From an uncultured Thermodesulfobacteriota bacterium (GTDB lineage Bacteria > Desulfobacterota > Zymogenia > Zymogenales > Zymogenaceae), in contig CAZIWT010000002.1 in assembly GCA_964542895.1 (NCBI GenBank), positions 2,730 through 66,729 of the forward strand: a DNA stretch of 64,000 nt. Reading direction: 5' to 3'. Positions within the stretch are counted from its first letter, which is position 1; each line of letters begins with the position of its first letter. Position numbers and translations under genes: made by a program. Under the pieces are notes generated by a model that was given only the letters and a program-made list of their open reading frames with translations, was not told the DNA's origin and ran no database searches. Below, piece by piece: positions 654 to 51,230 of the stretch.

Positions 654-1988
654 TCAGCCTCTCCTCTTCCTGCCGCTTCTTCTTCTCCCCTCTCTACTTT
701 TTTTGCCGGACACACTTTTCTTTCTTATCGGCTCGTCGAGCTTTTTTCCCAGGTCATCGTCGTCCGCGACCACAAAGGGGAGCTTTCCGTCGATGAGCTT
801 CTCGATAGGCTCAAGATAATATACGTCGTCCTCGGAGGCGATGGATATGGCGGTGCCCCTCTTTCCGGCCCTGGCGGTCCTGCCTATCCTGTGGACGTAG
901 TCCTCGGGGTTCTGGGGCAGGTCGTAGTTGATGACGTAGCCGACGTCCTCGATGTGAAGACCCCTGGACGCCACGTCGGTGGCGATGACGATCTTTATCT
1001 CCCCTCCCATGAAGCGCTCGATGATCTTAAGCCTCTTCCGCTGGGGGATGTCGCCGGTCAGGGCAAAGGCCTTTATGCCGTTTTCGGTCAGCCTCTCCTC
1101 TATCATCGTGACGCCGCTTTTAGTGTTGGAGAAAATCAGGAGCCTTTCGGCATCGGACTTTTGGACAAGTCCGAGGAGGAGGCGAAACTTCTTTCTCTTC
1201 TCCACGTGATAGAGAGTCTGGCTTACCTCGTCTACCGTAACGCTCTCCGGGGTGGCCGAGACCTCCACCGGTATCTTCATATATTGGTATGTCGCCTCGA
1301 TGACCCTGAAGTTTATCGTGGCGGAAAATAGCATCGTCTGTCTGGTTGAGTACTTGGGCAGCCTCTTCAGCATAAAGCGTAGGTCCCTGATAAAGCCCAT
1401 GTCGAGGAGGCGGTCCGCCTCGTCGATGACGAGAACCTCTATCCCTTTCGTCTTCAGGATGTCCTGCTTCATGTAATCGATGAGGCGCCCCGGCGTCCCC
1501 ACGACGATGTCGACGCCCGCCTTCAGGCGGTCCGCCTGCTTTTTGTAGTCCACCCCGCCGAAGACGGCGGTGTAGGTAAGACCGGTGTGGGTGCCGATGT
1601 CCCGGGCCTCCTTTTCTATTTGAACGGCGAGCTCCCGGGTGGGGGCGATAATCAGGGCCCTTGGGAGAGTCGGCGACTTTTTTTCGGTCTTGAGGAGCTT
1701 TTCGAAAATCGTTATGAGAAAGGCGGCGGTCTTCCCCGTTCCGGTCTGGGCCTGACCTATGAGGTCGAATTCCCCCAAGGTGTAGGGAAGGGCCATCGAT
1801 TGGATATCTGTGGGGCTTATAAACCCAACGTCCTTTATGCCCGCGGCCGTGCGGTTGTCCAAATTCAGCTCGGCGAAGGTTTTGATCGGGGGGAGGTATT
1901 TATCCGGAGTCTTGTCGTATTCCTTGTAGGTTTCTGCTTTCTGAGATCTGAGCATGATTTCCTTGTGAACGGCTGTATGGCCGAGCAA
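654..1988 (-). CDS. DEAD-box ATP-dependent RNA helicase
   Basis: Motifs AQTGTGKT (Q/I), VIDEAD (II), SAT (III), HRIGRTARAG (VI). Basic C-terminal tail. Confidence 0.9.
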   Translation of the reverse strand: MLGHTAVHKEIMLRSQKAETYKEYDKTPDKYLPPIKTFAELNLDNRTAAGIKDVGFISPTDIQSMALPYTLGEFDLIGQAQTGTGKTAAFLITIFEKLLKTEKKSPTLPRALIIAPTRELAVQIEKEARDIGTHTGLTYTAVFGGVDYKKQADRLKAGVDIVVGTPGRLIDYMKQDILKTKGIEVLVIDEADRLLDMGFIRDLRFMLKRLPKYSTRQTMLFSATINFRVIEATYQYMKIPVEVSATPESVTVDEVSQTLYHVEKRKKFRLLLGLVQKSDAERLLIFSNTKSGVTMIEERLTENGIKAFALTGDIPQRKRLKIIERFMGGEIKIVIATDVASRGLHIEDVGYVINYDLPQNPEDYVHRIGRTARAGKRGTAISIASEDDVYYLEPIEKLIDGKLPFVVADDDDLGKKLDEPIRKKSVSGKKSREGRRRSGRKRRG

Positions 1989-2286: not shown

Positions 2287-3351
2287 TTAAGCGTTACGAG
2301 GTTTTCGAGTACCCTTGCTCCTTTTCTTTTTCCCGACGTCTCTTTTTTTAGATTTATCCTTATCCGCTTCGCTTTTTCCGTCGTAATCAAGAATCAACTC
2401 TCCCATTTTTTTCCCGTAGTGTTCCTCCAGCTTTTTGAGCATTTTTACGTCGTCCAATTCGATCTCCTCATCCAAATCCACTTGGAATCTGCGAAAATCG
2501 AGAGGATGGAGAAACTCCTTGGTCAGATCGTTTTGTTGATCGTTAGCCGATTGCATGAAGGCCCCTAACATTGCTTTAGCGAATTTCACCGGGTCCAATC
2601 TGATATCTTCCAAGCTTTCTGCAATGGGTTTGTCCCTTCCGGTGCCTATGCTTATAAGGGTCGTGTTTTTGGTGGTCCATTTCCTTTTTTCATTCAGGTG
2701 GTGGGTTATCTCGTATGCGGTGATGTACGAGGGATTGTTGTAGGAGCCGACGCCGCCGTCTATATATTGACCGTATTCGCCCTTGACTGGAGGGAAGTAT
2801 GTAGGGGCGGCACTGGATGCCAGAACCGCCTTTACAACCGGCCACTCGGTAAAGTTTTCATCCTTTTTCTTTTCCGGCACGTTCCACGGCTTTATAAAGC
2901 GTGTTCTGTTTGATGTAATATCAAACGTAGTGAAGACAACGTCTATCTTGGGATCTAAAGAATAGAAATATTTCATCTTCGCCCCTTCACCAATCTTCTC
3001 GCCCAAAATTGTCTTCAGAAGAGATTCTAGCTTCTTGTTGGAGTAGTACTCTCCCGTGAAGACCATCCTTAGGGAGGTGTAGCCGGGGAAGAGCTTTTTA
3101 AAGACGTCCCTTCCCAGCTTCCTGTAGTAGCCGTTAAGGTCGTTTGCGGATACCCCTGAGGCCAGGGCGGAGGCGATTATTGCGCCGGTGGATGTGCCGG
3201 CGAACAGATGGACCTTTTCGTTGAGCCTCTTTTTTATGTAGCCGGTCTGTATGAGATGATCCTCCAGCATGGAGAGCGCTTTTGTGGCGACGATCCCCTT
3301 GATCCCGCCGCCGTCGATCGATATGGCGACGTTTTTCCTGAATTCTTTCAT
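2287..3351 (-). CDS. patatin-like phospholipase with Lys-rich C-terminal tail
   Basis: DGGGIKG oxyanion motif, GTSTG (GxSxG nucleophile), DGG catalytic Asp motif. The 30 C-terminal residues are KKRSKG-rich. Confidence 0.85.
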   Translation of the reverse strand: MKEFRKNVAISIDGGGIKGIVATKALSMLEDHLIQTGYIKKRLNEKVHLFAGTSTGAIIASALASGVSANDLNGYYRKLGRDVFKKLFPGYTSLRMVFTGEYYSNKKLESLLKTILGEKIGEGAKMKYFYSLDPKIDVVFTTFDITSNRTRFIKPWNVPEKKKDENFTEWPVVKAVLASSAAPTYFPPVKGEYGQYIDGGVGSYNNPSYITAYEITHHLNEKRKWTTKNTTLISIGTGRDKPIAESLEDIRLDPVKFAKAMLGAFMQSANDQQNDLTKEFLHPLDFRRFQVDLDEEIELDDVKMLKKLEEHYGKKMGELILDYDGKSEADKDKSKKRDVGKKKRSKGTRKPRNA

Positions 3352-3580
3352 GATTCTTCTCCTTGAAGAAAGTGTCGAGTGCCCGCCTTTTTAAGGCGGG
3401 CGATAGGGCGCCTTAATCAACGAATTTCAAGCGCACTCTACTCCTCGGATGTTGTGGGAACAGCCGTATGGCCCCACAACATTAAACAGTATCCTTTTCA
3501 GAGAGTATTATCAAAAAAATCAATAGACTGAAGATTTACGGTTTTTCAGCCGCTCTTCAATTTCCAGCATCTCGCTTTCA

Positions 3581-4696
3581 TCACGGCAACCTTTCGAGCA
3601 CGAAGTCCCGTTGCAGCAGCGCGGCCCTGTGGAAATGGTAAAACGGCGACTTGAAATAGTCGTCTTTTATTATCATTTTTCTTCGGATTTCGACACCTTT
3701 GTAATAATCGTCCCAATCATGGCCATCTCCTTTTAAGACTTGAAAAGCGGTTCTCCACCAATCTGTTTTATCGTATTTGAACTTTTCGGGAAACTGGAGG
3801 TCATCAAAGAAGTCGTAAAAGTTATTTCTCCAGTTCTCACACCGATCCTCAAGATCCCTTCCCACGTATTTCAGCTGCTTTTCTATCCTCTTTTTGATTT
3901 CATTCCATTTTTTATAGGGGGTCTTTTGGGTTTCCGACAGTTTTTTGTAGATCGTCTCCGCCGCCTTGAGAAACTCCTTCGTGTTATTACGCGGAACTAA
4001 TTCGCCGGTCGATTTCTTTGTGTATTCCCAGACCAAAAAAGGGTAGTCCGGGTAAAAACCGGCTTCTGCGTGACCTATTCGGGGTCCCGCTTTCCATGGG
4101 ATTTTAATTTTAAATTTACGCTTCATAAGCTTCATCACATTGTTTTTTTTGACCTGGATATCTATCACCTCGTTTTCTTCGTTTTTCCTTCCGGAAAACC
4201 CTTGATGCGCCCAGGTGTCCGCATAGGTGTGCAGGGCTATCCCTATGCGGCAGAGACGAAACAGCTCGAAATCCGTTATCATGGATTCCCAGCATTCACA
4301 CTCCTTTTTTCCCTTGAGGGCCTCTTCTAAAAGCGTATCGGCGAACTTTATGCCGAATTCTTCGGATTTTTTGGTCTTTTTAAGTTGGGCGGGCTCTGTT
4401 ACGTATTCAAATCCCCATCCGGGCGGCTCGTAAAACCTCGGCGGAATGAAATGAAATGAGATTAGAATCTTCTTCTGCTCGGACCAGAATATAGATCTTA
4501 CCTTCAAACCTTTGTGTGCCGTGCGCACCGGATCGATTCTGATGTCGTTAGGGGATTTTTTTATGGGTATTCGTCCGCCTTGCGTTGCGTCGTCGACGTA
4601 TTGTGACGCGTAGGCTATGGTGAGGGCGTCTTTCGAGCTGAAGCCGGCGGCCTTTGCCAAGACTCCTATACAATAATAGTGAAAATCCCTTTGCAT
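3581..4696 (-). CDS. hypothetical protein; possible metal-dependent hydrolase of the Zn-phospholipase C / P1-nuclease-like fold (weak)
   Basis: 371-aa ORF. N-terminal FHYYCIGVLAKAAGF and internal ALHTYADTWAHQGF resemble the W/H...H-x3-D-x4-H metal-site motifs of that fold. Lower GC than neighbours. Confidence 0.45.
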   Translation of the reverse strand: MQRDFHYYCIGVLAKAAGFSSKDALTIAYASQYVDDATQGGRIPIKKSPNDIRIDPVRTAHKGLKVRSIFWSEQKKILISFHFIPPRFYEPPGWGFEYVTEPAQLKKTKKSEEFGIKFADTLLEEALKGKKECECWESMITDFELFRLCRIGIALHTYADTWAHQGFSGRKNEENEVIDIQVKKNNVMKLMKRKFKIKIPWKAGPRIGHAEAGFYPDYPFLVWEYTKKSTGELVPRNNTKEFLKAAETIYKKLSETQKTPYKKWNEIKKRIEKQLKYVGRDLEDRCENWRNNFYDFFDDLQFPEKFKYDKTDWWRTAFQVLKGDGHDWDDYYKGVEIRRKMIIKDDYFKSPFYHFHRAALLQRDFVLERLP

Positions 4697-4881
4697 CTTA
4701 CCCTCCTTTAAAATTTGATATTTTAAAAATCGATGAGGCCAGGTTCTCCAGATGCTGGAGAAGGGCCTCCCGTTACTTAAAGATATTGAAAATCATTTGT
4801 TATCAAAAACAAGTCCTAAAAACCACCGTGAATTAAGGGGGCCGTCCAGATCGTAGTTATTTCCCTCGCAAGCAGGGGGCC

Positions 4882-5901
4882 TCATTTCAGCTTTGAGCAT
4901 TCTCCGCCCGGATGTTGGATCGGCTCTTTCTTTTCCCAATCATTTTCCTTGATCTTTCTCCCCAGCTCCTCCCCGTACTTTTTAAGGAGTTCGATGTTTT
5001 TAGGGGAGGCGTCGTCCAGTTTGATATACTCATCTATATCGACCTGAAAGCGGCGGAAGTCGAGCTCTTTAAAGAAGTTCTGCACAAGGAACACCTGCTG
5101 GTCGTTGGAAGACTGGCGAAAGGAGTCGATGATGGGCATGATCCAGCCGAAAGCGGTTCTGGGTTTCTTCTCAATAGGTTTTTCCCTGCCGGTTCCTATA
5201 CTTATGAGGGTGGTGTCCTTCGCCTCCCAGCCGAGGCAGTATGCGAGCTCGAAGGCCGCATAGTAACAGGGATTTCCGTATGCGCCGAATCCGCCGTCGG
5301 CGTAGTGACCGTCCACGGGGGGGAACAGAGAGGGCACAGCGCTGGACGCCAGCACCGATTTGACCACAGTCCAGTCGGTGAAATCGACCTCTTCCCCGTT
5401 CGTTTCATCGGCGATCCTTATTTCTTCTTCGGTCGGCTTGTTCCACGGCTTGATGAATCTTGTGCGATTATCGAAGATGTCGAGGGTCGTGATGACGAGG
5501 TCTATGGGTCGATCTCCTTTACAGAAATCCTTCATCTTCCTGTCGCCGATGAGCTTTGTCAGCTCCTGTTTAAGGGCCTTGTTGCTGTAGCGATGGCTGC
5601 AAAACGGCCAGGGTCGAAGCAGTGGGTTTTTCTTGAACACCAATCCGCCCAAGCTCGTATAGAGATCGAATATCTTTTTGGCCTTTACACCGGATGTGAT
5701 ACACGCGGCGATAATCGCCCCGGTGGAGCTTCCCGCCACGAGGCGAAAGGTGTCGACAAAGGATTTATCGTTCTTAAAAAGCTCCGCCTCGAGGTCGATC
5801 AAGGCCCTTGCGGCCGCCACACCCTTGATTCCCCCGCCGTCGATAGATATCGCTACGTTTTTCCTGAACTTCTTCATCGTCCTTTTATCTTTTTTCGCCA
5901 T
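4882..5901 (-). CDS. patatin-like phospholipase (paralog of 2287..3351)
   Basis: KKFRKNVAISIDGGGIKG is nearly identical to the other copy. GSSTG nucleophile elbow. DGGFGAYGNP Asp motif. Confidence 0.85.
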   Translation of the reverse strand: MAKKDKRTMKKFRKNVAISIDGGGIKGVAAARALIDLEAELFKNDKSFVDTFRLVAGSSTGAIIAACITSGVKAKKIFDLYTSLGGLVFKKNPLLRPWPFCSHRYSNKALKQELTKLIGDRKMKDFCKGDRPIDLVITTLDIFDNRTRFIKPWNKPTEEEIRIADETNGEEVDFTDWTVVKSVLASSAVPSLFPPVDGHYADGGFGAYGNPCYYAAFELAYCLGWEAKDTTLISIGTGREKPIEKKPRTAFGWIMPIIDSFRQSSNDQQVFLVQNFFKELDFRRFQVDIDEYIKLDDASPKNIELLKKYGEELGRKIKENDWEKKEPIQHPGGECSKLK

Positions 5902-6498
5902 TTTTATCCTCCCTTTGCTTATTTGGTGAATCTATATCCCCGAAGACTCAAGAAGGTCGCATCATTTCCTCACCATATGAAATTCGTATAACCGCTTATT
6001 TGGACGTAAGCTTTCAGCATCTCGGAGCGGACCGAATCAATTAAATCGGATTCGAGTTACGCTTCGCCCGATTTCCTGTCCATTGTGAATGCATTGCCCC
6101 CTTCTTTGTCGAACTTTTCAATCCCTTAATTGGCCCGACGTTTTTATTGAGAATTTTTTTGTCTTTAAGTAACGCCGTCCGCCGAATCGTTTAACTGAAA
6201 AATTATAAATTAGGCATGACAAACAATACGTTATGCTATTGTTTATTTGACCGACGATCTCAAAGCGAGCCTGTATCGCGGGACCTTTTTCAATCCGAAC
6301 CGGCTTTCATCTATTGTAAATTGGTAGACTAATTTCTAATCAGGTTCAAAATGAGATTAGAGGTGAAACGGCGGCTAATCGAAATACGTGAATGAGAAAT
6401 GCTGTGAAGTACAAAGAGATACTTTTTATGGTATATTAATGCAATGTATGTCCAATTGTCAAGACAATAATGACTAAGTCTGGATAAACGTCGCAAAA

Positions 6499-7614
6499 TT
6501 AATCCAGTATTTTAAACCTGAAATACCCCAGGAAGTTCTCGTTTTCATCTACGGGACGCCAGCGCATCTCCGGGTGATGCATTAGGGTCGAGAGCCTCAC
6601 CTTCCTCACCTCGCCCCGGTCGGTTTCCCTCGGCCCCGTGTGGTAGACCACCCAGTCGTCCGTTACTTTCTCGTCGCCGCCGCCGCTGAGATCATCGCCC
6701 CCTTCCTCTGTCCCCCACTCCCCGAGAAATATCATCGCGTGGTAGGGCATCCTCGGATTGTCCGGGTTGAAGTAGAAGATGATATCCCCAGGGAGGACCC
6801 CCTCGCCCCCCTTTCCCAGGGGGACCACGTTGTAGAGGAGGATGTGTCCCGCCGTCGCCGACGGGGAGAATTTCTTGGGATCGCCTTCGATATCTGCTAT
6901 GGAAAATGTCCCGTCCCCGGTCCTGAAGATTTTCTCATTAAGCAGGGGCACGTCCGGGTAGTTGTACTTCTTTATGTCCGGGTTGGCCGGGTTTACGAGG
7001 GCGCTGTAGCTGGATAAGAACCGGGCGTCGTGGAGTTTAAGCGCCTCCGAGTAGGAGAAGCGGATAAGCCCGGCGCAGTCGTTGTTTACATCGGCCCAGC
7101 GGCGGTTCTTCTCGTAGACCTGAGATTCGCCCACGGCACAGAGCCACCGCCTGAAGTTGAGGCGATCGGTGTCTCCGAAGAGCTCCACAACGTCGGGAAA
7201 GCCGTCCCCGTCCCCGTCGCGGTAGTCGGGTATGACCTTAAATGTCGCCTCTCCCCCTTTGAGGCCGTCGGAGTTTGCGGTAATTTTCACGCCTCCCGCC
7301 TCGAAGGTAGAGATAAAGGTGAGATCCTTTTCCCCCCCCTCGAGCGTAACGGGCGTTTTTTCTATCATCAGGACGTCTGCGCCCGAGACCGAGACTTCGA
7401 CCGGAATTTCCGCGTTCTTGACGGTCCTGCTTTTATCGTCCACGGCCCTTATCGTCACGGTGAGGGTCTCCTCCCCGTTGGCGTGAATCTCCCCCTTCGA
7501 GGCCTTAAGATCAAGGCTTTCGGGACTCCCGTAGCAGGAGGCAAAAAGGAGGGCCAGAAGACAGAGAAGCAACCTCCCCCGGAAATAACATCTGTCCTGC
7601 CTTTTTTCCCTCAC
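6499..7614 (-). CDS. lipoprotein with Ig-like (Big) domain and C-terminal NlpC/P60-like (possibly DUF1175-type) Cys-His domain
   Basis: Signal peptide with lipobox LLFASC. Big-like beta-rich segment. Then [10 protein letters not shown] ... GDIIFYF ... YHAMIFLG in the order typical of papain-like NlpC/P60 folds. Confidence 0.45.
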
Positions 7615-16099: not shown

Positions 16100-18427
16100 G
16101 TGATGAACAAAAAAAGGCGAAAGGTAAGGATCTCTTTAAAGCTTTTTCTCCTTTTCACCTACGTCGGGCTCATTCCGATCATCTTCATCTCCTTTTACAC
16201 CTACTACGAGATCAACCGAATCGTGGCCGTCGAGGCGGAAAACAGGCTTGTCGAGGTAGGGACGAGATTGAGCGGCGACATCACGAGATCGATCAACGGC
16301 TCCTACAAGACGATGAAGCTCCTCTCCAAAAACCCCGTTATCACAGGCGACCACAAGACGACGGGTGAGAAGGAGCGGGAGCTTCAGAAGATAGCGAGCT
16401 TCTCCCCCGATATCATGGCCCTCTTTATTTTAAGGGATGGTGAGATCGCGGCCCGGGGCGGCGTTTATGGCTTTCCCGAAGATAAGATAGATAAAAAGGG
16501 TCTTATGAGGAATTCCCCGAAGATAACCGGGCCTTTCGTCTCCTCCAAGTTCTCGACCCCTGCCTTTATAGTGTCTGTGCCTGTTGTGCCGTCGGCACCG
16601 GCTTTAGAGAGAGGAGGTGGGGAGACACTCGTCCTCGTGGGTGTCTTCAACCTGGAGGATCTTTGGGACATGACGAACCTAACCCGGATAGGGAAGACGG
16701 GCCGCGCCGTCGTCATCGACGACCAGGGCAGGAGGGTTGCCGGGGTGGGAACCGATGTGATGTTTACGAAGTTTACCGACGAGAACATAAACAGGATCAC
16801 CACGGTAGGGAGGGGGATAATTCATTATACCGACGATGAAGGGAAAAAGTATCTCGTCTTCGGGACTCTAATTCCCGGCCTGAAGGATATAGGCCCAGAG
16901 GGGCTTCGGGTGGTTGTTTTTTTTGAAGAGGACGAGGCTTTTTTGGTTGCCGACAAGATACGAAAGGGCCTCCCCTACGCGGTGGTTGTTATCCTGATCG
17001 CAACATCGATAGTGTCTTTCATACTGTCGGACACCATCTCCCGGCCGATAAAAAAGCTCACCAGGGCGACGGAGCTGATCGCAAAAGGGGAATTTTCAGA
17101 GGAGATCGTACCGACTTCAAATGACGAGATCGGTGTCCTTACCGATTCCTTCAACCGCATGGCCAGGGAGCTGAGCGATTCAAGGGATTTTATTGAGAGC
17201 TACAACAAGGAGCTCGAAAGGCTTGTGAGGGAGAGGAGCCGCAAGCTGAAGGAGTCGGAGGAGAAATACAGGATGGTTGTGGAGGGTTCCGGGGAAGGCT
17301 GGGTGGTGTTCGATAAAGAGGGGACGGTCAAGTTTGCGAACCGGAGCATGGGCGGTCTCGTGGGGGAAGAGCCTGTCAGGCTTTTGGGGAGGAAGCTCGA
17401 CGAGTTGATCTCCCTCGATACCAAAGGGGTGGGTGCGAAGGGGCCGATCCAAGGCAAGGTCTTGGAGGATGATTCGGGAAAGCCGATAAAGATCGAGATG
17501 GTCGGGATAGACGGGGACAGAAAATATCTCGAGGCCGCGATATTTTCCCTTTCGGGCCGAGAAAGTGAGGGGTGGGAGGGCGGCGGTGAGGAGGCGCCCC
17601 TCTTTCTCGCCCACCTCAAGGACGTCACCGATATTCACACCCTCGAGACGGAAAGCGAAAATCTCAAGCTTGAGCTCATGGAGCGGGCGAAACACTCCCA
17701 GATCGGTATCCTGGCCGAGGGGCTCTTTCACAATCTGAACAATCCCCTTCAGGCGCTGGTGAGCCTGTTGAAGGTCAGCTCCGAAGACCTCGAGAGCGAG
17801 TTTACACAGAAGGGGAAAAAGGATACAGTCGATTTGAGCGGGAGGCGGCAAGGCCTCATATCCGACTCGAAGGAGGCGTACGACCTCTCCAGGAGGCTAT
17901 CGGATCAGGTCAGAAACCTGATGGCGAAGGTGAGAAACGAGGGGAAGAGGGAGGTGGAGGAGCTCGACATAAACCGGATATTGACCGACGAGATAAAATT
18001 TCTGGAGGCGGACCTCTTCTTCAAACATAAGATCGAGAAGGAGCTGATACTAGACGGGAAGATACCGGTTTTCAAGGGGGTGTATTCGGACTTGTCCCAG
18101 AGCTTTGTCAATATTATCTTGAACGCCGTAGACGGCATGAGGGAGGCGGAAAAGAGAAAGTTGACCGTCAAGACCGCGGTCAGGGGAGACGATATCGTGG
18201 TGACGTTTCAGGACACGGGCGTCGGGATAGACGAGCGGGACATCCCGAATATCTTCAAGCCCTTCTTCACCACCAAGAGAGAAGGTGGGGGCAGGGGGGG
18301 TAAGGGGGATTCCGGGACGGGGCTAGGGCTCTTTACGGTGGACTTCCTCTTGAAGCCATACGGGGCGGTCTATAACGTTACGTCGCGGCCGGGGGAGACC
18401 TTTTTTGAGATAGTCCTCTCGATATAG
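16100..18427 (+). CDS. sensor histidine kinase (TM-Cache-HAMP-PAS-HisKA-HATPase)
   Basis: N-terminal TM and a periplasmic sensing region. HAMP (PIKKLTRATELIAKGEFSEEI...LTDSFNRMAREL). H-box FHNLNNPLQAL. G-box GTGLGL. Confidence 0.85.
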   Translation: MMNKKRRKVRISLKLFLLFTYVGLIPIIFISFYTYYEINRIVAVEAENRLVEVGTRLSGDITRSINGSYKTMKLLSKNPVITGDHKTTGEKERELQKIASFSPDIMALFILRDGEIAARGGVYGFPEDKIDKKGLMRNSPKITGPFVSSKFSTPAFIVSVPVVPSAPALERGGGETLVLVGVFNLEDLWDMTNLTRIGKTGRAVVIDDQGRRVAGVGTDVMFTKFTDENINRITTVGRGIIHYTDDEGKKYLVFGTLIPGLKDIGPEGLRVVVFFEEDEAFLVADKIRKGLPYAVVVILIATSIVSFILSDTISRPIKKLTRATELIAKGEFSEEIVPTSNDEIGVLTDSFNRMARELSDSRDFIESYNKELERLVRERSRKLKESEEKYRMVVEGSGEGWVVFDKEGTVKFANRSMGGLVGEEPVRLLGRKLDELISLDTKGVGAKGPIQGKVLEDDSGKPIKIEMVGIDGDRKYLEAAIFSLSGRESEGWEGGGEEAPLFLAHLKDVTDIHTLETESENLKLELMERAKHSQIGILAEGLFHNLNNPLQALVSLLKVSSEDLESEFTQKGKKDTVDLSGRRQGLISDSKEAYDLSRRLSDQVRNLMAKVRNEGKREVEELDINRILTDEIKFLEADLFFKHKIEKELILDGKIPVFKGVYSDLSQSFVNIILNAVDGMREAEKRKLTVKTAVRGDDIVVTFQDTGVGIDERDIPNIFKPFFTTKREGGGRGGKGDSGTGLGLFTVDFLLKPYGAVYNVTSRPGETFFEIVLSI

Positions 18428-18541
18428 AAGGGTCGGAGTCGGAAAGGTGCCGGAGGGGGGGCGCGGGGAATCGTTTGATTTGTCTGAAACAGCGATAAGA
18501 TTGGAATTACAGGAGGGGGGAATATATGAGAGGAGCGAACG

Positions 18542-20008
18542 ATGGAGGGGAGTAAGGGGAGCAAAGGTGCCGGTGTAAGGGGGGTGGGATCCAAATCCCC
18601 TGCATACAGAAAGGGGATTGGGCTGAAATACAAGATGGCCCTTACGATGTCACTGGTTATAGTGGTTGTGATGGGACTTGTGACGGCGATTACGGTAAAA
18701 CGGGAGGTGGCCGCAAAGAAAAGGGACGCCGACCTCAGGATAGCCGGGATCGCAACGATGATCAAGCTGACCATGGACACCATGCCGAGAGAGAATTTCA
18801 TCCGCTGGGTGAAATCCCTCTACTCGGTCAAGTACGAGACGAAAAGCTACAATCTCGACCTGATTTACATCGTTATCGAGGATAGCGACGGGGAAAATAT
18901 CGTGTCTTCTGTTAATCCGAAGGCGGGACTTGAGGGCTCGGGCTCCGAGGATTACGAAAACCTTGCAGAGCTCAAGGAGATCGAGGTGAAGGGGTTGAAG
19001 AAGGTCGAGACTTTCATTAAAGATAAGAGCACGGGAAATGTAAAGACATCTATCTATATGGGGTATTACCTCAAGAACCTTCAAAAGGGAATTTGGGAGA
19101 TGGTGGGAAAGTCCCTTGCGGTTACGCTTTTTCTGATCGTTACCGCCGTAATCTTCTCGTTTTACTTCTCGAACAGGCTCACCCGGCCTATTGAATCCCT
19201 CGTGTCCGGCATGGAACTGGTTTCCGGGGGCGACTTTACCAAAAGGGTGCCGGTAACCACCACAGACGAGATCGGCTATCTGGCAAACAGCTTCAACAGG
19301 ATGACCGAGGGACTGAAGGAGAGGGAGTTCATCAAGGATACCTTCAAGAGGTACGTGACGAGGGAGATCGCCGACCAGCTCCTATCCCAGAAGAACAAGA
19401 TAGTCCTGACCGGGGAGAAGAGGGTGGTAACGGTCCTATTTGCCGATATCAAGGGCTTCACAACCATAGCCGAGAAGACGCCGCCGGTGGAGCTGGTCTC
19501 CACGCTCAACGATTATTTTTCCGTAATGATAGACATCATCTTCAAATACGAGGGGGTCTTGGACAAGTTCATCGGGGACGCCATAATGGCGTTCTGGAAC
19601 GCCCCCCTTAAGCAGGAGCAACCGTCTTTAAGGGCCGTTATGACCGCCCTGGAGATGCAAAGCGCCTTAGTTCAGCTGAACGAGAGACGCAAGCGTCAGG
19701 GGAAATATCCCCTCCACATGGGGATCGGGATAAACACCGGGGAGGCGGTGGCGGGGATTATAGGCTCCGAAAAGAAGATGGAGTACACCGTCATCGGGGA
19801 CACCGTAAACGTCGCCCAGCGTTTGGAGTCGATAACGGAGAAGGGGCAGATTTTGGTGAGCGAGAGCACGTATATGAAAGCGAGGGGCAGGCTTGTGGCA
19901 AAAGAGCTTGAACCGCAGGCGCTGAAGGGGCTCAAGAGGGATATAAAGATTTTCAACGTCTTGGGAGTAAAAAAGGGAGAAGGAGAGAAACATGATAAGA
20001 AAACATAA
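18542..20008 (+). CDS. class III adenylate/guanylate cyclase with TM and HAMP domains
   Basis: HAMP (GDFTKRVPVTTTDEIGYLANSFNRM). Cyclase core VTVLFADIKGFT...FIGDAIMAFWNAP. Confidence 0.85.
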   Translation: MEGSKGSKGAGVRGVGSKSPAYRKGIGLKYKMALTMSLVIVVVMGLVTAITVKREVAAKKRDADLRIAGIATMIKLTMDTMPRENFIRWVKSLYSVKYETKSYNLDLIYIVIEDSDGENIVSSVNPKAGLEGSGSEDYENLAELKEIEVKGLKKVETFIKDKSTGNVKTSIYMGYYLKNLQKGIWEMVGKSLAVTLFLIVTAVIFSFYFSNRLTRPIESLVSGMELVSGGDFTKRVPVTTTDEIGYLANSFNRMTEGLKEREFIKDTFKRYVTREIADQLLSQKNKIVLTGEKRVVTVLFADIKGFTTIAEKTPPVELVSTLNDYFSVMIDIIFKYEGVLDKFIGDAIMAFWNAPLKQEQPSLRAVMTALEMQSALVQLNERRKRQGKYPLHMGIGINTGEAVAGIIGSEKKMEYTVIGDTVNVAQRLESITEKGQILVSESTYMKARGRLVAKELEPQALKGLKRDIKIFNVLGVKKGEGEKHDKKT

Positions 20009-42031: not shown

Positions 42032-42265
42032 TTATTGATTGCTACCCGTTAAGTATTGACTGGACGCTGAGCTATCGTCCCTGCAATTCCCCTCGGCGGT
42101 GGAGCCGATCCCGCAGTTGTTGTTCGGTCTGGCGCCGGACCAGCGGTTATTCGGTTGCGCTCCCCCCCCGGTACATATATCCATTGACCGACAGCCTAAA
42201 TCCCATTCTCGTTGAGCTCAATGATCGTAGTTGATTGATACAACTTGGTTTTTAATCTCTTCTTT
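42032..42265 (-). pseudogene. degenerate third precursor-peptide paralog (nonsense + frameshift)
   Basis: The minus strand reads ...LYQSTTIIELNENGI*AVGQ, aligning to KKYEPPKIIDMNVDYVQALGQ with TAG where the paralogs have CAG (Gln). After a G8 homopolymer the next frame gives NNNCGIGSTAEGNCRDD with the C-x9-C spacing. No ATG. Confidence 0.35.
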
Positions 42266-43254
42266 TATGTCCTCTCTCTAAAAAAAGTCAAAGGATTAAT
42301 GCTGCGGGTAAAATGGATATTATGAAATGGAAAACGCTCTACTATCTCCCTTACCAATGTAAAGGTCTCTTTCGCCTCTCTTTCGGGGAAGTATCTGAAG
42401 AAGTGGATATGATTGTGCAGAATCCTCAACATTGCCTCCCCGGGTTTGATCTCTTCCAAATAATCATCTTCATCCTTTATCAGGAAGAAGAATCTCTTCG
42501 CTGAAACAGTCTCCCCACAGTTTTTTCTGCTTGACACCTGGGTAAATGGGGACGGCATCGTATAGTAGCACCTCCCCCGCCGAAATAAGAGAGAGCCGTC
42601 GTCGGCCAGGAGCCTATCCTTCCCTATGAGATCGGCGATGGTGCTCTTTCCCGCTCCGGATCCCCCGAAAAAGATATATCCCCCGCCATTGATTTCCGCC
42701 GAACAGGCGTGAAGCATCATACCTCCGTACAGCGGGGCGAAAAGCCCGACCGTCGCCTGAACAGCAAGGGATATGGTAGAGGCGTCGTCGAAAAAGCCAC
42801 TTTTTAATAAAAAAACCTCTCCCGAGGGTCTATCATAATTGATTAACAGGAGAAATGAGTTGTGGTGTAGGACTGCTATCCTGTCCTTTTTAAGTAGTGG
42901 TGTTAGATACGGAAATCCTTGAGACTCCACATTATCCTTCGACTTTACACGTCCCATTCTACTACTTCCCCTTTTCCAGCCGAAGGGGAGTTGACCGAAA
43001 GGGAACCTCTTCTCTACTCTGAGGAAATAATTTTCTAAAGCCCTGATCTCATCTCCGTTAAAGAGGCTTTTTAAAGGGACATCACTCCATTCTTGTATGA
43101 CAAGGGGGAATCTTTCTTCTCTGTTAGATAATATGTAATCCGAAAACTTCTTGGTTATGGCCTCCATAAACCGGTTATCATCTTCGCCTTTATAAGTTAT
43201 TTCGAGTTTTACCCCTCCTATATCGATATTAATCGAGATCATTCCAATTTTCAA
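42265..43254 (-). CDS. HPr-kinase-related kinase (HprK C-terminal-domain-like)
   Basis: P-loop FFGGSGAGKST plus a downstream LLADDGS-type segment, as in HprK/lasso-peptide kinases. 329 aa. Confidence 0.55.
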   Translation of the reverse strand: MKIGMISINIDIGGVKLEITYKGEDDNRFMEAITKKFSDYILSNREERFPLVIQEWSDVPLKSLFNGDEIRALENYFLRVEKRFPFGQLPFGWKRGSSRMGRVKSKDNVESQGFPYLTPLLKKDRIAVLHHNSFLLLINYDRPSGEVFLLKSGFFDDASTISLAVQATVGLFAPLYGGMMLHACSAEINGGGYIFFGGSGAGKSTIADLIGKDRLLADDGSLLFRRGRCYYTMPSPFTQVSSRKNCGETVSAKRFFFLIKDEDDYLEEIKPGEAMLRILHNHIHFFRYFPEREAKETFTLVREIVERFPFHNIHFTRSINPLTFFRERT

Positions 43255-49717: not shown

Positions 49718-50881
49718 ATGGAACTAGCATTTCGGGAACAAATACTCTTGTTCTTGGCTCTCCCCGTTTTGATAGGCGGATTAATTGCATTAATTCTGTA
49801 TAGGTTGTCAAAAAAACACCAAACTCAAGAGACCGATAGATTAATAGAAACGTTGAAGAAAGAAATTAAACCGGTTCCAATCGTTTTGGTTCCAGAATTA
49901 CAACCTGTAATAACTGAAGAAAAACGCCAAAGGATCGTTTCGCTGGTTCAATCTATAAGCAAACAGAAACTAATAGAGCTCTTCGACATCGAATTACTCA
50001 TCAGGCTTGGTAATACAGAATACGAATTTAGTAACTATTCTGAGGCACTTAACTACTGTAACATGGCTCTTAAAAAGGCGAGAATTACTTCCAATAAATG
50101 GGCTATAGCAGCATGTCTTAATAATATTGGTCTTTTAGAATTCCATATGGATAAGTTGGATCTTGCCGAAAAAAATCTAATAGAAGCACAACACATTTCG
50201 AAGGAGATTAAAGATAGAAATATCGAAGCTAGCACTCTCGGAAACATCGGGCTTGTCTACAAGCATAAAGGAGACCTACGGGGTGCATTGAAACAATATA
50301 AGGAGTCCCTGTCAATATGCCGAAAAATCGGGAATAGACATGGAGAGGCAATCGGCTTGTTTAACATCGGGCGTGTCTACAAGAATATGGGAAACCTGAA
50401 AAAAGCATTGGAGCACTACGAAGATGCTCTGAATATAGACCAGGAGATCGGTTATAGGAAGGGAGAAGCAGATAACCTTGGAGGCATAGGGAATGTCTAC
50501 AGCGATATGAGAGATCTGAAAAGAGCTCTTAAGTACTTAGAAGAAGCTGTAGCAATTTATCGGGAGATCGGGCACAAGCGGGGAGAGGCATATGACCTCG
50601 GAAACATCGGTATTGTCTACATGACCAAAGGGAACTTGAAGAAGGCATTGAAACATTTTGAGAAGGCTCTAAATATCCACCAGGAAATCGAGTATAAAAA
50701 GGGTGAGGCGGCCGACCTCGCAAAAATTGGGATTGTCTACGGTATAAAAGGAAAGAAAGAAGAGGCACAGAAATATTTCAATGAAGCGCTGAAAATTCTT
50801 GAGGATTATAACCTTATTCATGAGAAAGACGTTATTTTGGGAGCAGTCAAATTAGTAGAAAACGGGCATAACAAAAAATAA
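49718..50881 (+). CDS. TPR-repeat protein with N-terminal transmembrane helix (low-GC gene)
   Basis: At least 7 tandem 40-aa repeats of GEA.(L/I)GNIG.VY...G.L..AL..Y...L.I. Clearly AT-richer than its flanks. Confidence 0.8.
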   Translation: MELAFREQILLFLALPVLIGGLIALILYRLSKKHQTQETDRLIETLKKEIKPVPIVLVPELQPVITEEKRQRIVSLVQSISKQKLIELFDIELLIRLGNTEYEFSNYSEALNYCNMALKKARITSNKWAIAACLNNIGLLEFHMDKLDLAEKNLIEAQHISKEIKDRNIEASTLGNIGLVYKHKGDLRGALKQYKESLSICRKIGNRHGEAIGLFNIGRVYKNMGNLKKALEHYEDALNIDQEIGYRKGEADNLGGIGNVYSDMRDLKRALKYLEEAVAIYREIGHKRGEAYDLGNIGIVYMTKGNLKKALKHFEKALNIHQEIEYKKGEAADLAKIGIVYGIKGKKEEAQKYFNEALKILEDYNLIHEKDVILGAVKLVENGHNKK

Positions 50882-51019
50882 TCCAAATCACCTACTATTT
50901 AAACAAATCCTTCAAGACGGAAACCAAGAAGCCGAGAAAGGAACAAAATCCCTTGACAAAAAAGGAAGGGGATGTTACTTTATACGTTCAAGTTTTGGAA
51001 ATATCAAACATAGTGGCGT

Positions 51020-51095
51020 GGGCTATTAGCTCAATTGGTAGAGCAACTGACTCTTAATCAGTAGGTCCTAGGTTCGATCCCTAGATAGCCCACCA
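51020..51095 (+). tRNA. tRNA-Lys (anticodon CUU)
   Basis: GGGCTATTAGCTCAATTGGTAGAGCAACTGACTCTTAATCAGTAGGTCCTAGGTTCGATCCCTAGATAGCCCACCA. 76 nt with an encoded CCA. Confidence 0.85.
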
Positions 51096-51144
51096 CTTTT
51101 GAAAATTCTTATAATCGGCGGATGGTCTCACCTCTCGCAACAAA

Positions 51145-51230
<86 letters not shown>

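Follow-up and report, generated by a model that had tools for sequence, protein, structure and literature searches.

The locus at positions 2287-5901 of the window analyzed here (the whole 64-kb stretch of contig CAZIWT010000002.1, from an uncultured Thermodesulfobacteriota bacterium of the Zymogenaceae) raises the question of what two patatin-like phospholipase genes do on either side of a gene from an uncharacterized family. A first-pass annotation of the sequence had placed the three correctly as co-oriented open reading frames (ORFs), which lie on the minus strand and are here called patA, the middle gene DUF6765, and patB, and had read them as an accessory, lipid-targeting module of the immune or toxin type. 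The cluster is not an operon of CBASS (antiphage signaling based on cyclic oligonucleotides), and it carries no hallmark of a mobile defense island. Since its place in the lineage is fixed and no signaling cyclase accompanies it, we regard it as a mildly unusual lipid-hydrolase locus and not as a recognizable immune system. The explanation that we favor, tentatively and at slightly less than an even chance, is that Desulfobacterota of the Candidatus Zymogenia type have inherited a pair of latent lipases vertically, with DUF6765 as a companion specific to the lineage.

Both patatins were recognized by the Pfam family Patatin (PF01734), with scores of 74.8 bits for PatA and 101.1 bits for PatB against a cutoff of 27.7 bits, and they align with each other end to end at 47% amino acid identity (E value, 3e-87). 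Paralogues so long and so similar go far beyond what chance would yield. It had been reported in the first-pass annotation that the two share a nearly identical N-terminal region and diverge afterwards. The first part of this description stands, with 17 of 18 residues identical between the two in the N-terminal stretch K[KE]FRKNVAISIDGGGIKG; because the proteins can be aligned over their whole length and have the later motifs RTRFIKPWN and LDFRRFQVD in common, the second part is too narrow. Retained in both are the catalytic motifs DGGGIKG (oxyanion hole), GTSTG or, in PatA, GSSTG (nucleophile elbow), and DGG. An alignment of 30 relatives, both paralogues included, revealed G14 to G16, S54, G56, and D198 to G200 to be invariant. 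The retention of dyad and oxyanion hole supports the view, from sequence, that both enzymes are catalytically intact and, together with the CapV-type fold described below, lends weight to the earlier claim that the locus targets lipids.

The lysine-rich termini that had been pointed out are real. The C-terminal tail of PatB (approximately residues 325 to 354) is predicted to be disordered, with a predicted local distance difference test (pLDDT) score below 50 at residues 333 to 344; it is not kept in the orthologues, and basic tails rich in Ser, Arg, and Lys recur sporadically across the patatin clade. By analogy with CapV, such a tail would fit electrostatic membrane binding. The lysine-rich N terminus of PatA is an eight-residue extension that the window shares with the closest relative, Candidatus Zymogenus saltonus (L050), and that is lacking in two further related loci (L052 and L053). 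No signal peptide was evident in PatA, DUF6765, or PatB.

Comparison with CBASS phospholipase effectors revealed a clear resemblance. The PADLOC hidden Markov model for these effectors (PDLC00758) matched PatA with an E value of 4e-46 and PatB with an E value of 1.3e-51, and the best sequence matches of the patatins in the PDB are CBASS lipases, AbCapV included. An AlphaFold2 (AF2) model of PatB (pLDDT, 88) was superposed by Foldseek over its whole length on AbCapV (8zr9_A, the protomer of the filament bound to cyclic GMP-AMP [cGAMP]), with template modeling (TM) scores of 0.74/0.76 and an E value of 1e-21 across 343 columns. The score against the plant patatin Pat17 was slightly lower (TM, 0.69), and iPLA2-beta was matched with an E value of 4e-14. 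The pocket of AbCapV is closed when the protein is in its apo form; AbCapV assembles into filaments on ligand binding and has basic membrane-binding surfaces, and its essential cGAMP contacts are F147, K149, D159, E207, and R279 (PMC12480259). F147 corresponds here to F152, which is nearly invariant in the clade, and K149 and E207 correspond to K154 and E214, both invariant. The counterpart of D159 is D164, in a variable acidic loop, and R279 has no counterpart, being aligned to a Phe.

The strong effector matches, the fact that the nearest solved structures are CBASS lipases, and the conservation of three contact residues speak for a cyclase-less abortive-infection or stress-suicide module. 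A nucleotide synthesized elsewhere in the genome, or infection sensed directly, would set off its CapV-like effectors, and DUF6765 would serve, as a phosphodiesterase resembling phospholipase C (PLC) or P1 nuclease, either as a co-effector or as an off switch that degrades the signal; rapid evolution of DUF6765 and patB would then represent an arms race. We consider such a role unlikely. Against the NCBIfam model CBASS_lipase (NF041079), PatA scores 109.1 bits and PatB 135.6 bits, both under the equivalog cutoff of 200 bits. Besides the missing counterpart of R279, the conserved F152, K154, and E214 may be general features of the fold and not specific to nucleotide binding. DUF6765 itself has no match in PADLOC, and no phage homologue of it was found.

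The surroundings of the trio also count against a defense role. Among the top 25 families listed by each of the PADLOC and Pfam scans of 49 proteins of the window, there was no cGAS/DncV-like nucleotidyltransferase (CD-NTase), other sensor, or defense gene, and no CD-NTase was present among the called genes of L001 to L004, which carry the same locus, or of the related L050 to L053. The region is one of housekeeping genes (among them those of H+-PPase, IleRS, Lon, ClpP, trigger factor, Lgt, LspA, and Pth), and the nearby genes encode SelA, an ABC ATPase, a MagC-like protein, and a DEAD helicase; the trio keeps its position among such genes in all relatives, and patA evolves at the housekeeping rate. 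No significant flanking repeats or mobile-element genes were found around the trio. The immune or toxin reading of the first-pass annotation is therefore not supported by this context. A CBASS operon in particular is rejected, as CD-NTases are lacking from the syntenic loci and from the matches listed for the window and the NCBIfam scores remain under the cutoff. The literature searched yielded nothing on orphan CapV-like lipases.

The only cyclase in the window is a generic HAMP class III enzyme (18542-20008), 12.6 kb from the trio. It follows a dCache-HAMP histidine kinase (the two genes together span 16100-20008), with which it looks like an ordinary signaling pair, and it gives generic PADLOC matches to Pycsar cyclases.

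How stable the locus is was seen from its relatives. Four metagenome contigs (L001 to L004) bear this very locus, with the MagC-like gene in the same position. In Candidatus Zymogenus saltonus (L050/L051; Candidatus Zymogenia, Desulfobacterota), the gene order is as in the window, from SelA to the ABC ATPase and MagC-like genes, then patA-DUF6765-patB, and then the DEAD helicase. The trio is followed by the helicase in L053 and by the start of the helicase in L052, and L054 contains the trio. In L050, L052, L053, and L060, the gene directly downstream of the patatin locus encodes a DEAD helicase with 72 to 90% identity to that of the window. The trio is thus syntenic in every related genome recovered (L050/L051, L052, L053, and L054), a pattern that the first-pass annotation had itself named as a mark of housekeeping lipid metabolism and as counting against its reading. 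In a neighbor-joining tree, PatA and PatB form separate clades, each containing all genomes, and the duplication is therefore older than the divergence of these genomes. A presence/absence scan of metagenome contigs with a lineage-specific neighbor of 589 amino acids gave one weak match only.

The three genes have not evolved at one rate. Compared with Candidatus Zymogenus saltonus (L050), the flanking proteins are 80 to 90% identical and PatA is 87% identical, and the identity is only 57% for DUF6765 and 64% for PatB. The GC content at third codon positions (GC3) is 0.68 in patA, 0.56 in DUF6765, and 0.60 in patB, against 0.73 to 0.79 in the neighbors; the overall GC content of the trio is 0.46 to 0.52, and its lower GC relative to the helicase, remarked on in the first-pass annotation, was confirmed. 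That DUF6765 and patB outpace their flanks and have low GC3 would suit an abortive-infection role and, with the exchange of the middle gene in L060 described below, is what remains of the accessory character once proposed for the locus. The nucleotide identity profile against L050 is a mosaic in which islands at the catalytic motifs are conserved and the rest has diverged, which argues for accelerated evolution of DUF6765 and patB and not for a clean cassette swap. With this profile and the lack of flanking repeats, a mobile element or a recently acquired horizontal cassette is rejected.

The differences in evolutionary rate and GC3 among patA, DUF6765, and patB are also in keeping with the possibility that there is no functional module at all and that the three are independent neighbors, an old patatin duplication into which an unrelated DUF6765 gene was inserted and whose order has been kept by vertical inheritance in a small clade. 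We think this somewhat improbable. Across five related metagenomic genomes, the trio has kept its order on one strand even as the identity of DUF6765 has dropped as low as 44%, which is longer than gene order usually lasts under neutrality, and all catalytic residues are kept in both paralogues.

Further evidence on this point came from other gene arrangements. In L060 (136-5254), a contig of the wider lineage, a patatin of 342 amino acids, a four-transmembrane protein of 179 amino acids, and a patatin of 321 amino acids precede a DEAD helicase that is 73% identical to that of the window. The middle slot therefore holds a different gene there; its small product, which matches no Pfam or PADLOC family, would again not be out of place in a defense module. 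In an unrelated lineage, L065 (4401-6421) and L066 (4940-7053) have a directly adjacent pair of patatins between UDG and QueA with no middle gene. The members of these pairs are a protein of 314 amino acids and one of 343 or 350 amino acids with a long basic tail, 53 to 58% identical to each other, and each pair comprises one member of a short clade and one of a long-tail clade. In L055 (6001-7059) and L057 (6001-7092), of that lineage too, a single patatin of the clade is found between UDG and QueA. The difference of the middle gene in L060, its absence from L065 and L066, and the occurrence of close patatin relatives as singletons among housekeeping genes (UDG-patatin-QueA) suit three independent neighbors. 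Patatin pairs, on the other hand, are found again and again, in three architectures, an argument for selection of at least the pair as one unit. The pairs come from different clades of paralogues, so that their architectures are not orthologous in the strict sense, and since the pairs in L060 and L065/L066 lack DUF6765, paired paralogues recur independently of it. The unit that recurs is a pair of paralogous CapV-like lipases. The gene between them varies and can be missing, and DUF6765 is an addition specific to this lineage. No description of the tandem patatin pairs of L060 and L065/L066 was found in the literature searched.

The middle protein had been said to have no obvious family. This is not borne out, for it matches Pfam DUF6765 (PF20551), an uncharacterized family, over its full length (237.4 bits against a cutoff of 26.6; residues 1 to 370 on profile positions 1 to 325). 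Neither did it resolve to a routine enzyme, an outcome for which the first-pass annotation had allowed. In an alignment of 40 homologues, D4, H6, D55, H82, H156, D160, H209, D217, and H356 are invariant, D35 and H164 are nearly so, and the N terminus M-Q-x-D-F-H is fixed. The AF2 model is mostly helical (pLDDT, 86; predicted TM score, 0.91), and a Foldseek comparison of the model with the PDB returned no fold match. From its conserved residues, DUF6765 is probably a metal-dependent hydrolase. More than 1,200 homologues were found in many bacterial phyla and some archaea; the literature searched held no mention of DUF6765 or PF20551.

Elsewhere the family is a widespread singleton. Of 45 DUF6765 loci from other phyla, none has an adjacent patatin, and these loci have no conserved partner, the largest cluster of shared neighbors comprising 4 loci; this again favors independent neighbors and bears out the earlier remark that the trio is not a standard arrangement. 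On plasmids of Vibrio atlanticus and Photobacterium (L064:4297-7065 and L062:5060-7065), a distant DUF6765 with 23 to 25% identity stands at the end of a conserved operon of overlapping small hypothetical genes, which adjoins either a type I restriction-modification system or IS256, Fic, and YLATT genes. This Vibrionaceae plasmid subfamily may belong to a conflict-system context, and its neighborhood is a further point on the side of a defense role. DUF6765 is also encoded on the megaplasmid of Ralstonia solanacearum (L063:6001-7071), in 127 records, next to a TerC/CorC membrane protein, a membrane protein of 449 amino acids, an acid phosphatase, and a choline dehydrogenase; a culturable host therefore exists for the family.

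Whether DUF6765 is a relative of the zinc-dependent PLCs was examined with profile comparisons. Weak matches to PF00882 (Zn_dep_PLPC) occur in 16 of the 40 DUF6765 members, all on the HxxxD motif, with a best E value of 0.0071 (approximately 14 bits against a cutoff of 26.8), and no other Pfam family recurs among these members. In three rounds of hhalign overall, DUF6765 was aligned with a Bacillus cereus-type PLC alignment with an E value of 0.063, and with an alignment of 169 PLC domains, built by a profile search of 1.84 billion proteins, with an E value of 0.012 and a probability of 3.6%, the significant part being a motif of 18 residues only. In the low-stringency path, FHFxP falls opposite SHFYDP, and the LHxxxD motifs of the two families fall opposite each other. 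The distant DUF6765 members provided no bridge to PF00882. Homology to zinc PLCs is rejected as an established result, given the best hhalign E value, the PF00882 scores under the cutoff, and the negative Foldseek comparison, and is kept as a lead only.

The features of the locus and its two synteny anchors are given in the table below. Each of the three genes has its own GGAGG-type ribosome-binding site. That of DUF6765 precedes its ATG separately, and patA and DUF6765 show neither overlap nor translational coupling. The long, AT-rich spacers with individual ribosome-binding sites are consistent with genes that are merely adjacent. The AT-rich borders described in the first-pass annotation are also present, on the upstream side and in the downstream noncoding DNA (1989-2286; 298 bp; GC content, 0.41). 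Reading of the spacer between DUF6765 and patB revealed one hairpin at approximately 3450-3481 (TGTTGTGGG...CCCACAACA) and a second at 3381-3401 (GCCCGCC-TTAAAAA-GGCGGGC), the latter 30 nucleotides 5' of the start codon of patB. No T run follows either hairpin, and they are not canonical terminators. The region 5' of patA contains one sigma-70-like site (6462-6433), no more than expected by chance, and promoter and terminator scans were likewise at chance level. No riboswitch or other known RNA was matched by Rfam, at E values up to 1, in the long spacers or in this region; a known RNA in the spacers is thereby rejected, and the upstream region is also at most weakly conserved among relatives.

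Table. Positions of the patatin locus and its flanking genes in the 64-kb window
Feature	Position	Strand	Description
patA	4882..5901	-	Upstream CapV-like patatin phospholipase, 339 aa; slowly evolving paralogue; Pfam Patatin
Middle gene DUF6765	3581..4696	-	371 aa, cytoplasmic, putative metal-dependent hydrolase; Pfam PF20551; His/Asp constellation
patB	2287..3351	-	Downstream CapV-like patatin phospholipase, 354 aa; fast-evolving paralogue; Pfam Patatin
Noncoding region 5' of patA	5902..6498	-	597 bp, unusually long, AT rich (GC 0.39); presumed promoter and 5' leader
Spacer patA/DUF6765	4697..4881	-	185 bp, GC 0.43
Spacer DUF6765/patB	3352..3580	-	229 bp, GC 0.445; two hairpins
DEAD-box RNA helicase	654..1988	-	Pfam DEAD and Helicase_C; downstream synteny anchor, outside the proposed module
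DUF1175/MagC-like gene	6499..7614	-	Pfam DUF1175, E value 4.7e-56; upstream synteny anchor, outside the proposed module

Two other genes of the window stand out by their composition. Immediately upstream of tRNA-Lys and tRNA-Leu, a TPR-repeat gene (49718-51230) has a GC3 of 0.42, lower than any other in the window (typical values, 0.65 to 0.80), and may have been acquired horizontally at the tRNA site. An ORF of 329 amino acids (42265-43254), with no Pfam family and a GC3 of 0.51, lies amid housekeeping genes.

If the trio is a vertically inherited lipase pair with a DUF6765 companion, its core would be formed by anciently duplicated, cytoplasmic, single-domain patatins of the CapV type, one evolving slowly (patA) and one fast (patB). 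By analogy with CapV, these are probably latent Ser-Asp acyl hydrolases, and some cue may open the lipid pocket, upon which they would attack membrane glycerophospholipids from inside. The acting form may be an A/B hetero-oligomer of PatA and PatB, whose binding to the membrane basic surfaces or tails would help. DUF6765 could contribute a second reaction, as a metal-dependent esterase or phosphodiesterase, so that the three proteins would cooperate, or it may be a co-located passenger.

Several points weigh against this explanation. The A/B hetero-oligomer is something we purely infer, and with gaps of 185 to 229 bp and a ribosome-binding site for each gene, nothing points to tight cotranslation. 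Quick to diverge and low in GC3, DUF6765 and patB look more like conflict-type or dispensable genes than like parts of core lipid metabolism. The functional link between DUF6765 and the patatins is weak because the family has no conserved partner at the 45 loci of other phyla and the middle gene is replaced in L060. The zinc-PLC-like reading of DUF6765, finally, is not significant by either hhalign (E values of 0.012 to 0.063; probability of 3.6% or less) or Foldseek against the PDB.

A bolder version, to which we assign a low likelihood, would have the large cyclase-less CapV-like clade, with more than 6,700 homologues, consist of ligand-gated phospholipases that are hetero-oligomers of two paralogues. 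Candidatus Zymogenia would then have recruited DUF6765, as a new cytoplasmic branch of phosphodiesterases of the PLC/P1 type with a trinuclear metal site, to be a co-effector or an off switch that degrades the signal. If so, the locus would represent a new intracellular switch for membrane demolition or remodeling, related to and yet distinct from CBASS.

The consequences differ between the explanations. If the pair is a gated hetero-oligomeric lipase, a CapV-type scaffold would be in use far outside CBASS, in stable chromosomal contexts, and one would have to ask what turns it on when no dedicated cyclase is at hand; DUF6765, a family widespread in bacteria and archaea whose His/Asp site is invariant, would also gain a first functional handle. 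Should the genes be mere neighbors, the locus would be an ordinary lineage-specific cluster, mainly of annotation value. In that case, matches to the PADLOC CapV-like models without a cyclase should not be labeled as defense, and annotations of DUF6765 should mark it as a probable metal-dependent hydrolase. Most useful as leads are the patatin pairs that recur, the asymmetry of evolutionary rates within the trio, and DUF6765 as a candidate metal-hydrolase family.

Of the known systems with which the locus can be compared, the superfamily of PLC and S1-P1 nucleases concerns the middle protein. The mark of this superfamily is a set of nine metal ligands (the N terminus, His, Asp, His, His-x3-Asp, His, His, and Glu), and the candidate counterparts in DUF6765 are collinear with it, with different spacing. 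Set against the PC-PLC of B. cereus (1AH7), H6 of DUF6765, at the start of helix 1, would correspond to H14, Y-x-D35 to Y-A-A-D55, F-H82-F-x-P to S-H69-F-Y-D-P, L-H156-x3-D160-x3-H164 to L-H118-x3-D122-x5-H128, and H209-x-E to H142-x3-E146. In contrast to PLC, DUF6765 is cytoplasmic, its chain exceeds that of PLC by approximately 100 residues, and two of the motifs are spaced differently. Because the similarity is not significant, no PDB match was found, and length and spacing differ, we do not claim membership in this superfamily.

The patatins share with CapV (AbCapV 8ZR9/9JEH; PADLOC PDLC00755 to PDLC00758) a single-domain patatin fold of approximately 340 amino acids with the same catalytic Ser and Asp and GGGx[KR]G, a cytoplasmic location with basic, putatively membrane-binding features, and candidate counterparts of three cGAMP contacts. 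Unlike CapV of CBASS, they have no CD-NTase in the operon or, among the matches listed, in the window. Their identity to CBASS lipases is only 22 to 25% in structural alignments, the counterpart of AbCapV R279 is missing, and the invariant LDFRRFQVD is specific to the clade and absent from AbCapV. In contrast to CapV, PatA and PatB form a fixed paralogous pair among housekeeping genes. Pat17 and iPLA2-beta (PF01734) have the same fold and Ser-Asp dyad. They are slightly farther away than CapV in both sequence and fold, and they are eukaryotic storage and signaling enzymes with no comparable gene context. The tandem pairs of L060 and L065/L066 likewise consist of two co-oriented paralogues of the CapV-like clade, approximately 50 to 58% identical, in a housekeeping context with no cyclase, and they differ from the trio of the window in lacking DUF6765. 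What is new at this locus is best filed as CapV-type patatins that form a chromosomal paralogous pair, here in the company of DUF6765.

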